DNA of 22,436 nucleotides, taken from the NCBI GenBank assembly GCA_029856365.1, contig JAHQWW010000058.1, positions 1 to 22,436 of the forward strand, given 5' to 3'. The DNA is from Candidatus Hodarchaeota archaeon. Lineage in GTDB: Archaea; Asgardarchaeota; Heimdallarchaeia; Hodarchaeales; Hodarchaeaceae. The translations under genes were made by a program, and so were the position numbers. Shown in pieces: positions 18,715 to 20,406 of the stretch (positions are counted from its first letter, which is position 1; the number at the start of each line of letters is the position of its first letter). Under the pieces are notes generated by a model. That model worked only from the letters and a program-made list of their open reading frames with translations, was not told the origin of the DNA and made no database searches.

Positions 18715-18791
18715 CAAGAATGTCCGAAAATTATTAAAACGGAACATCTTCTAACTTGTCCTAGGGAATAAATAACGAAACAACACGTATT

Positions 18792-18990
18792 GGGGACGTA
18801 GCGAAGCTAGTGGTCTTACTAAAAGCTAGCAAGACCGGACAAGTATCGCGCCGGGCTCCAGAACCCCCTGTGAACTCCACTGGGTTAACTGAAACTCATG
18901 ATGAAGTTCTGGAAAAATGAGGAAACTCGGTGTCACCTCTGCTGGTTGCAAGGTGTCCGAACATCGCCGGTTCAAATCCGGCCGTCCCCA
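18792..18990 (+). tRNA. tRNA-Trp(CCA) with three introns (about 18811-18842, 18862-18924, 18933-18962)
   Basis: Acceptor GGGGACG/CGTCCCC-A; D stem GCGA/TCGC; anticodon stem CCGGG/CTCGG with CT-CCA-G; T arm GCCGG-TTCAAAT-CCGGC; removing the three inserts gives a normal cloverleaf. Confidence 0.9.
18862..18924 (+). ncRNA. intron-encoded box C/D guide RNA of pre-tRNA-Trp
   Basis: D' CTGA 18889-92, C' ATGATGA 18898-904, D-like ATGA 18917-20; guides complementary to the host anticodon arm, +5 positions fall on C39 and C34. Confidence 0.85.
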
Positions 18991-19356
18991 AGTTCTTCTT
19001 TTCCGAGCTAGAATCTGTCCTCATTTTTTCATAATCATTTTTGATTTCTCCTATTAAAAGTATAAGCTTGTTGATAATGTTTCTCGCAGATAGGATGCGA
19101 ATTATTGTTTGAAGCTGATAACGCGTCATTAAGAGAATTCATTACTGAAAAAGTGCTACGATTATCGATTGTACCACAAGAATTGTTACTAAATTTTACT
19201 TCTGACACTTTGAGCTATAAGACTTCAATTGATCTGTAAATTGGTTGATAGAAAGCTCCATTAATAAATAGTCAGATATTATGGGATTTCCTAATTTCTG
19301 AATTAAATATGGAAAATCTAATTCTCTACATCGCATAGATGTTACTTTTTCCTAGA

Positions 19357-19712: not shown

Positions 19713-20015
19713 TTGCAATATTTACACGCTGCTTTGGTTCTACACTCGACAGGTAAAGAAATATCAGAAAAAGGAATTGAAGCGATAATAAAAGCTGCTG
19801 GTGGAAAACCAGATGAATCCAAAATTAAAACCCTTGTTGCATCGCTATCATCCATTAATATTGACGAAGCTATCAAAGGAGCATCATTGATGACAGCTGT
19901 GGTTCCAAGAACATCCGAATCTATCAAGGATGTGAAAGATGCAGCTGTAACTGAAGAAGAAGAAAAAGATGAGGAAGAGGGAGACGATCTTGGTTTATCT
20001 TCTTTGTTCGGCTAA
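19713..20015 (+). CDS. rpl12: 50S ribosomal stalk protein P1 (L12p)
   Basis: MQYLHAALVLH..GKEI, acidic hinge and C-terminal GLSSLFG; TTG start. Confidence 0.96.
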   Translation: MQYLHAALVLHSTGKEISEKGIEAIIKAAGGKPDESKIKTLVASLSSINIDEAIKGASLMTAVVPRTSESIKDVKDAAVTEEEEKDEEEGDDLGLSSLFG

Positions 20016-20301: not shown

Positions 20302-20406
20302 GGGCCAGTGGTGAAGTTGGTATCACGCCGCCTTCGCAAGGCGGAGTATTCATAGGGTTTGCCCTTGGATGACCGCAACCCCCGAGTTCGAGTCTCGGCT
20401 GGTCCA
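20302..20406 (+). tRNA. tRNA-Ala(CGC) with a variable-loop intron (about 20347-20378, position 45/46)
   Basis: Acceptor GGGCCAG/CTGGTCC-A with the G3:U70 alanine determinant; anticodon arm CCGCC-TTCGCAA-GGCGG; T arm CCGAG-TTCGAGT-CTCGG; 32-nt hairpin insert. Confidence 0.92.

Follow-up and report, generated by a model that had tools for sequence, protein, structure and literature searches.

The window analysed here, a stretch of 22,436 nucleotides (nt) from a Candidatus Hodarchaeota archaeon of the order Hodarchaeales (GenBank assembly GCA_029856365.1, contig JAHQWW010000058.1, positions 1 to 22,436 of the forward strand), contains at 18792-18990 on the plus strand a 199-nt gene for tRNA-Trp(CCA) that is divided into four exons by three inserts. 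With high confidence, we read the locus as a functional tRNA gene with three introns, the middle one being a guide RNA that targets its own host. Once the inserts at 18811-18842 (32 nt), 18862-18924 (63 nt) and 18933-18962 (30 nt) are taken out, a perfect 74-nt tRNA-Trp(CCA) remains, for which ARAGORN reports a flawless cloverleaf with four paired stems of 7 bp (acceptor), 4 bp (D), 5 bp (anticodon) and 5 bp (T), a 7-nt anticodon loop, the D-loop AGCUAGGUA and the variable loop UGAUC. These are the loops that the original prediction, made from the letters of the window, had expected from removal at 18/19 and 45/46, and all the coordinates and motifs that it named are present in the sequence. 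Excising just one or two of the inserts leads to distorted or incorrect ARAGORN calls, and the unspliced 199-nt locus is called neither by ARAGORN nor by the Rfam tRNA model, the best Rfam signal being an 18-nt T-arm fragment of 13 bits. The spliced product keeps U8, A14, G15:C48, G18 and G19, A21, U33, G53, A58 and C61, and it also shows U54-U55-C56 in the T-loop, G1:C72 and A73; the last two we take to be consistent with the identity set of the archaeal/eukaryotic tryptophanyl-tRNA synthetase. CCA is not encoded at the 3' end of exon 4, and no plausible open reading frame in the window overlaps the gene. The features of the locus, in window positions, are the following.

18765-18776, plus strand: TATA-like A/T-rich element GGAATAAATAAC, about 20-25 nt upstream of the mature 5' end; a putative promoter, by the usual archaeal promoter layout
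18792-18810, plus strand: exon 1, tRNA positions 1-18 (acceptor 5' strand, D-stem 5' strand, D-loop to G18)
18811-18842, plus strand: intron 1, 32 nt, at 18/19 in the D-loop
18843-18861, plus strand: exon 2, positions 19-37 (G19, D-stem 3' strand, anticodon stem 5' strand, CUCCAG)
18862-18924, plus strand: intron 2, 63 nt, at 37/38; predicted box C/D guide RNA, by its box layout, the N+5 rule and guide-target covariation
18925-18932, plus strand: exon 3, positions 38-45, 8 nt (A38, anticodon stem 3' strand CUCGG, U44 G45)
18933-18962, plus strand: intron 3, 30 nt, at 45/46 in the variable loop
18963-18990, plus strand: exon 4, positions 46-73 (variable loop AUC, T arm, acceptor 3' strand, discriminator A73)
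18993-19003, plus strand: T-rich run TTCTTCTTTTC, immediately 3' of the gene; likely an archaeal terminator

This layout is shared across the genus, to which Ca. Hodarchaeum mangrovi (Asgard, Hodarchaeales) also belongs. Searched by BLAST with the 199 nt, 19 of the 21 genomes of the genus each yield a single full-length homologue, 76-95% identical; these 19 have the same four-exon layout, and in the aligned homologues the three inserts sit at identical positions, so that the comparison of tRNA-Trp loci among related metagenome-assembled genomes, proposed as a check on the original prediction, comes out in its favour. Exons and middle insert are near-invariant across the genus, and the flanking inserts vary in sequence with their hairpins kept. 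We measured covariation on an alignment of 17 species, with a null formed by sliding the pairing partners by 1-3 columns and by 500 shuffles. The cloverleaf stems that bridge the inserts, taken together with the hairpins of the two flanking introns, show 96.7% pairing, with compensatory changes in 13 of their pairs; the slid-partner control reaches 34-43%, and none of the 500 shuffles attained the observed covariation score. The same stems are returned independently by RNAalifold. Acceptor pair 4:69 is GC, CG or AU among the species, and anticodon pair 29:41 and two T-stem pairs also covary.

All three introns are in the bulge-helix-bulge (BHB) register: each cut falls 2 nt 3' of a strand of the central helix, and the intron hairpins begin 1 nt past the 5' cut, as that register has it. 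The motifs are of the relaxed HBh' and hBH kinds. In intron 1, one bulge nucleotide is followed by a 10-bp hairpin (18812-18821 / 18827-18836) that carries compensatory changes in 7 of its 10 pairs and ends 6 nt before the 3' cut, the register being bulge AG^U, hairpin from +2, then 4 nt and AA^G (^ marking the cut). Its central helix, AGCU/GGAC, formed by A14-U17 with GGAC of the intron, is 60% paired and has all four pairs in two species alone, G001 (GGCU) and G021 (GGUU); the helix had been described as weak from the start, and rightly. The suggestion that an alternative GCTA/TAGC helix might indicate a nested intron did not hold: the motif is the upper part of the intron 1 hairpin, and it is absent from G010, G019, G001 and G007, which keep the same intron boundaries. 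Shifted cuts for intron 1 are excluded by the need to restore G18 and G19, which adjoin once the intron is removed.

For intron 2, the anticodon stem serves as the outer helix, the 3' bulge is AA^A, and the central helix CUCC/GAGG is 75% paired; cuts at 37/38 or at 38/39 would give an identical product. Intron 3 consists of one bulge nucleotide, an 8-bp hairpin (18934-18942 / 18948-18955), an unpaired U, CCGA and an AC bulge. Its CCGA (18957-18960) pairs with U40-G43 of the exons to make a central helix UCGG/CCGA of 4 bp with the bulges UG^U and AC^A in register, and moving the cuts by one would give the variable loop UCAUC and break this register. The perfect 4-bp helix noticed at the outset is thus real, and it covaries: it is 92.6% paired and contains two doubly changed pairs (U:A to C:G and C:G to U:A), and the hairpin of the intron adds 2 compensatory pairs. 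Since a variable arm retained in the tRNA would have no reason to covary with positions 40/41, the helix supports splicing.

The middle intron has a further layer of organisation. We compared it with the archaeal box C/D layout, that is, C box RUGAUGA, D' box CUGA, C' box UGAUGA and D box CUGA, with spacers of about 12 nt and methylation placed by the N+5 rule. The intron runs in the order C box GUGAACU, a 12-nt guide, D' box CUGA, 5 bases, C' box AUGAUGA, a second 12-nt guide and D box AUGA, and both guide spacers are exactly 12 nt long.

18870-18876, plus strand: C box variant GUGAACU, with the RUGA core kept (R is G or A in 17 of 17 species)
18877-18888, plus strand: D' guide CCACUGGGUUAA, 12 nt, pairing with the last intron base and positions 38-45
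18889-18892, plus strand: D' box CUGA, invariant in the alignment
18898-18904, plus strand: C' box AUGAUGA, of which UGAUGA is invariant
18905-18916, plus strand: D guide AGUUCUGGAAAA, 12 nt, pairing with U33-G37 and the first three intron bases
18917-18920, plus strand: D box variant AUGA, of which GA is invariant (ACGA and CAGA in two species)

In the 17 species, the 9 bp of the D' guide are 100% paired, and the fifth base upstream of box D', G18884, lies opposite C39; in the D guide, 98.5% paired, the fifth base upstream of box D, G18912, lies opposite C34. On the precursor, the D guide makes 8 bp, compared with 6 bp on the spliced tRNA, and this loss of two pairs upon intron removal makes the precursor the likely substrate; the 9 bp of the D' guide are available on precursor and mature tRNA alike. 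Where C41 has become U41, in G019 and G001, a G:C pair of the D' guide has become A:U alongside it. On these grounds, intron 2 should be a compact box C/D guide directing a predicted 2'-O-methylation of C34 and C39. Because the D box shares bases with the 3' strand (18919-18922) of the 37/38 central helix, the guide fold and the splice motif are mutually exclusive on one molecule.

Genes for the enzymes of such a pathway are present in the genome. There are two EndA genes, a separate alpha and beta. The alpha protein (183 amino acids; L021:1474-2025, minus strand) carries both Pfam domains, which score 92 and 52 bits, together with the motifs ...YRRGPGIDHAP... and ...SVRKR... and the Tyr/His/Lys triad; in the PDB it matches the Aeropyrum pernix catalytic subunit best (3p1z_B, E = 1.6e-42, end to end), and the alignment is gapless across the Crenarchaea-specific loop (CSL; GKPVGIRKPKSPRFDRP vs GQPLDVEKPRGADFEGP), with K39 of the query on K44. 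The beta protein (210 amino acids; L022:1222-1854, plus strand) has both domains and is without the catalytic His at the aligned site; its nearest structures are the ARMAN-2 enzyme's N-terminal unit (4fz2) and the EndA-like unit of M. kandleri (5x89). Judged by these genes, the predicted splicing endonuclease is of the heteromeric (alpha-beta)2 type with a specificity loop (L1/CSL) that permits relaxed motifs; such an EndA, with the Crenarchaea-specific loop and K44 named, has been reported from Asgard archaea (PMC5829648). The typing of the endonuclease had been put forward as a way of checking the triple-intron tRNA-Trp(CCA), and with the comparison among relatives and the covariation, the enzyme set bears that reading out. 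Genes for fibrillarin (263.6 bits) and Nop5 (218.8 bits) adjoin on contig C118, and an RtcB gene was found as well.

Taken together, these elements suggest a path from gene to mature tRNA. The gene would be transcribed as a precursor of about 199 nt carrying three protein-spliced introns of the bulge-helix-bulge type. Intron 2, assembled with L7Ae, Nop5 and fibrillarin, would direct 2'-O-methylation of C34 by the D guide and of C39 by the D' guide of the host tRNA, the substrate likely being the unspliced precursor; the (alpha-beta)2 endonuclease with its relaxed-motif loop would excise the introns afterwards, and RtcB would ligate the exons. The fold of nucleotides 39-45 would differ at each step: methylation would need the guide duplex, cutting at 45/46 the pairing of U40-G43 with CCGA, and cutting at 37/38 the anticodon stem. 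Methylation first, 45/46 splicing next and 37/38 splicing last would be the most likely order, the D-loop intron leaving independently.

The reason for considering an order at all lies in positions U40-G43, which can pair in three mutually exclusive ways: with positions 27-30 to form the anticodon stem, with the D' guide, or with the CCGA of intron 3. G019 has U40 U41 and G001 has C40 U41, and in both, positions 29/30, the guide and the intron-3 strand are all adjusted to match; the original prediction had nucleotides 39-43 contested by the anticodon stem, the duplex with the D' guide and the 45/46 helix, and partners that change jointly support it. It had gone on to propose that splicing and guided methylation need a set order. 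In a nearest-neighbour model, the anticodon-stem conformer and the 45/46-helix conformer are practically isoenergetic while intron 2 is present (-73.8 vs -74.0 kcal/mol) and differ after its removal (-59.2 vs -56.3 kcal/mol), so that losing intron 2 first would impose a penalty of about 2.9 kcal/mol on the 45/46 conformer. The modelled energies mildly favour cutting at 45/46 before 37/38, which amounts to a bias and not to an obligation, and a fixed processing order of the precursor is, on this modelling, plausible. The strict version, with nucleotides 39-45 as a three-way switch of co-evolving partners and an obligatory sequence of methylation, 45/46 splicing and 37/38 splicing, we consider doubtful; if it were true, the tRNA could not lose its own guide before Cm34 and Cm39 had been made. 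The chances are only slightly short of even that the three introns are as described and no order is fixed, the folds being sampled and each enzyme capturing its own conformer, in which case the excised and perhaps circular intron may methylate other precursor or mature molecules in trans. The 0.2 kcal/mol between the conformers, and the just 2.9 kcal/mol after intron 2 has gone, agree with such free sampling, as does a D' guide that pairs equally well with precursor and mature tRNA; the intron-encoded guide of Haloferax volcanii does work in trans, according to PMC11408192, which refers to Singh 2004, and a homologous guide in a related genome, G023, is a separate gene, making trans action possible within the order. 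What speaks for some constraint on the timing is that the D guide drops 2 of its 8 pairs upon loss of intron 2, that the 45/46 conformer is less favoured once 37/38 has been spliced, and that with the D box lying in the 37/38 helix, the kink-turn and that cut cannot coincide on a molecule.

Several observations weigh against the gene being a three-intron tRNA-Trp with a self-targeting guide. That splicing and methylation take place, and in which order, we infer from sequence and structure. The splice motifs are relaxed: in intron 1, C16:G and U17:G are the sole constant pairs of the central helix and the 3' bulge is enlarged, effectively to 5 nt; in intron 2, C34.A is an invariant mismatch of the central helix, an inner helix is missing (hBH type), and RNAalifold favours a 3-bp register shifted by one; and in intron 3, an extra unpaired U faces the 5' bulge and there is no outer exon helix (HBh' type). 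The C and D boxes are degenerate, fitting a relaxed consensus, and intron 2 has no significant match among the Rfam C/D families, the best being sR3 (RF01133) with 11.4 bits and E = 1.6 against a gathering score of 41; as archaeal guides are family-specific in Rfam, the missing match weighs little. The covariation of guide and helix rests on G019 and G001, and it may reflect shared ancestry, with one or two events only. Finally, the assembly (4.24 Mb, 35% G+C) is 83.6% complete.

On another reading, the D-loop insert, the variable-loop insert or both would be expansion hairpins retained in the mature tRNA, the 37/38 intron alone being removed. That their removal is deduced from sequence, and that the D-loop central helix is weak, would fit such a view, and a 2026 preprint on Asgard tRNAs reports D-arm insertions without a canonical motif that are perhaps not introns (10.64898/2026.10.13.758758). 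Retention would, however, leave G18 and G19 standing 32 nt apart; the insert sequences evolve fast with just the hairpin and the BHB register kept, and the variable-loop insert covaries at its 3' end with the anticodon stem's 3' strand, as expected of a splice helix. Among the relatives, G022 is without the D-loop insert and G023 without the variable-loop insert, their exons being conserved, and within the window, a tRNA-Ala gene has an unrelated 45/46 insert of the same helix design. With an endonuclease of the broad-specificity type besides, we regard retained hairpins as very improbable. Even less credible is a decaying pseudogene whose working counterpart was unassembled or too interrupted to be recognised. 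The incompleteness of the assembly gives such an idea some room, and the extra gene fragments in G001 show that duplication and decay occur in the genus; however, the exons are near-invariant in 17-19 species, the stems are held by compensatory change, and nothing else resembling tRNA-Trp is found in the genome. ARAGORN with intron search over the whole assembly yields 31 tRNAs and none for Trp, and BLAST of the mature tRNA-Trp against the assembly finds exon pieces at 18792-18990 and no second gene. In five relatives that are 94-99% complete, among them the single-contig genome G009 (96% complete), the mature tRNA-Trp matches just as three exon pieces at one locus, and they show this locus alone. 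The one contiguous match among them, a weak one of 75% (G014:C181), proved to be tRNA-Phe(GAA). The gene at 18792-18990 is thus probably the only tRNA-Trp gene of the genome. A blastn-short search of the genome found no paralogous copies of the introns, and there is accordingly no sign of recent intron transposition.

The relatives show how the arrangement of the introns and the guide varies. A fourth intron of about 31-33 nt lies at 59/60 in the T-loop in two species, Hodarchaeota CSMAG_10 (G004, locus L009:1501-1732) and the type species Ca. Hodarchaeum mangrovi (G005, locus L015:1456-1686, minus strand), and its motif is a canonical hBHBh' made up of the T stem, UUCA/UGAA as central helix, bulges of 3 nt and an inner helix of 5 bp. 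G022, from a sister genus of the same order, is without the D-loop intron and has a 47-nt intron at 45/46; its 37/38 intron, which shares the C34.A mismatch, carries a guide whose two N+5 targets are unchanged and whose guide letters differ. In G023, from another sister genus, the sole intron is a 46-nt box-less one at 37/38, nothing interrupts 18/19 or 45/46, and a separate box C/D gene lies about 90 nt downstream of tRNA-Trp (L049, G023:C473:800-1800). The D guide and D box of this stand-alone gene are identical to those of intron 2, and its D' guide addresses C39. It has a terminal stem of 12 bp, and the T-rich spacer between D' and C' is unusually long at about 45 nt; the terminal stem was considered as a BHB motif and rejected, the central helix being 6 bp and one bulge 2 nt. 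From the comparison of G022 and G023, the 18/19 intron is the youngest of the three, barring the 59/60 intron of the two species. As these genomes are arranged, the guide has relocated at least once within the order. If it moved between a stand-alone gene, as in G023, and an intron, as in G022 and the genus, this would be an archaeal counterpart of the snoRNAs that introns host, in the group regarded as closest to eukaryotes. A sequence AACCCC(C) that precedes the C box in the gene studied here (18862-18868) is complementary to GGGUU of the D' guide and is paired with it in the ViennaRNA minimum-energy fold; AACCCC also stands before the C box of G023's stand-alone guide, and the element may be a terminal-stem remnant or a self-masking element.

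Beyond the close relatives, a pattern made of the tRNA-Trp anticodon arm, C' box and guide was found among 399 Asgard genomes in this genus and G022 only, the pattern being a narrow one that demands GGGCTCCAG and does not show absence elsewhere; a match in G154 was discarded as lying inside a coding region. A looser guide pattern, run across the class, gave outside the genus only chance or coding-region matches, including recurring ones in genus g8 that fall within a conserved protein gene. In a collection-wide guide scan, the archaeal matches inspected came from this genus, with one (L093) being G023, and matches in Methanoxibalbensis and bacteria were not tRNA-Trp loci. Two irregularities within the genus deserve mention. 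G001 has two extra tRNA-Trp fragments beside its intact gene, neither with an anticodon: a 3' fragment 22 kb away (L023, G001:C16:10631-10757) that extends from the intron-2 C box to the 3' end, and a 5' fragment 160 nt upstream (L020, G001:C16 ~33050-33140) with exon 1, a different intron 1 and exon 2 to about position 33. Both are probably remnants of duplication or rearrangement. In G003 (contigs C41 and C65) and G018 (contigs C1 and C5), both draft genomes, tRNA-Trp spans a contig break whose ends overlap inside the gene by about 110 identical bases, which looks like an assembly artefact rather than a split gene.

Elsewhere in the genome, the 31 tRNAs reported by ARAGORN, 17 of them with an intron, include none for Cys, Asp, Glu, Phe, His, Tyr or Trp, and many tRNA genes are probably hidden by non-canonical or multiple introns; a tRNA-Pyl(cta) with an intron on contig C32 is probably misread. 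The tRNA-Ala(CGC) of the window (20302-20406, plus strand) has its 32-nt insert at 45/46, and a CCGC close to the insert's 3' end pairs with GCGG at positions 40-43, so that here, too, the anticodon stem must open for splicing. Between the two tRNA genes, at 19713-20015 (plus strand), lies an open reading frame of 100 amino acids with an acidic tail (...EEEEKDEEEGDDLGLSSLFG) that resembles the ribosomal stalk protein P1/aL12.

Hodarchaeales genomes seem to lack tRNA-Trp because standard tools miss the gene; once it is recognised, the tRNA set is complete in the archaeal group currently placed nearest to eukaryotes. The self-targeting guide intron of tRNA-Trp, so far described in Euryarchaeota, now appears in Asgard archaea as well. 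Compact, conserved and with as many as four introns whose motifs are graded in quality, the gene offers a natural substrate for studying how well a loop-bearing (alpha-beta)2 endonuclease tolerates relaxed motifs, and it also suits asking whether competing RNA folds order modification and splicing. Three points give it its main interest: a self-targeting guide and a neighbouring intron share nucleotides, the type species has a four-intron form, and within one order the guide is mobile. The gene combines features that are already known and is a clear example of them without a new principle, and current understanding is unchanged by it; what is new is the fourth intron at 59/60 in two species, the sister genus without the D-loop intron and the stand-alone guide in another.

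The self-targeting guide intron of tRNA-Trp was reportedly described by Clouet d'Orval in 2001, by Singh et al. in 2004 and by Joardar et al. in 2008, and the multi-intron tRNAs of Thermoproteales are said to go back to Sugahara et al. (2007, 2008) and Marck and Grosjean (2003), all of which we know through reviews. In Haloferax volcanii and other Euryarchaeota, the tRNA-Trp intron guides modification of positions 34 and 39 (PMC11408192). Compared with that system as described in PMC11408192 and PMC4090602, the intron of the Hodarchaeales gene has the same 37/38 site and the same boxes C, D', C' and D. It also shares the two guides to host positions 34 and 39 and a guide fold that excludes the splice motif. 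It differs in its Asgard host, in its length of only 63 nt and in its degenerate terminal boxes, and position 39 is a C, whereas the euryarchaeal one is a U. Unlike its euryarchaeal counterpart, the host gene has two further introns and a D' target that doubles as a strand of the 45/46 central helix, and a sister genus keeps the guide as a separate downstream gene. The literature that we searched contained no report of a tRNA-Trp guide intron in Asgard archaea.

Asgard archaea in which nearly all tRNA genes are interrupted were reported in 2024 (PMC11291895), and a 2026 preprint by Goswami et al. describes up to 5 insertions per gene, D-arm insertions that escape tRNAscan-SE and several Heimdallarchaeia lineages with fewer than one insertion per gene (10.64898/2026.10.13.758758). 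The gene resembles those tRNAs in having several introns, many of them at non-canonical sites in the wider set, a D-arm insertion missed by the tools and two EndA paralogues consistent with (alpha-beta)2. Those studies are focused on Atabeyarchaeia and Jordiarchaeia/Freyarchaeia, unlike the Hodarchaeales gene, and neither mentions tRNA-Trp or methylation guides. Thermoproteales tRNA genes, according to PMC4090602, have up to three BHB-type introns, relaxed hBH/HBh' motifs and a heteromeric endonuclease. The Hodarchaeales gene parallels them in all these respects and departs from them in belonging to another phylum, in having a middle intron with a predicted function and in reaching four introns in two species of the genus. 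Its predicted endonuclease is like the (alpha-beta)2 EndA of A. pernix (3p1z, 3ajv; PMC5829648) in the loop, the lysine aligned with K44, the catalytic triad and the separate structural subunit, and unlike that enzyme in being known from genes alone and in having a beta subunit nearest to 4fz2 and 5x89.

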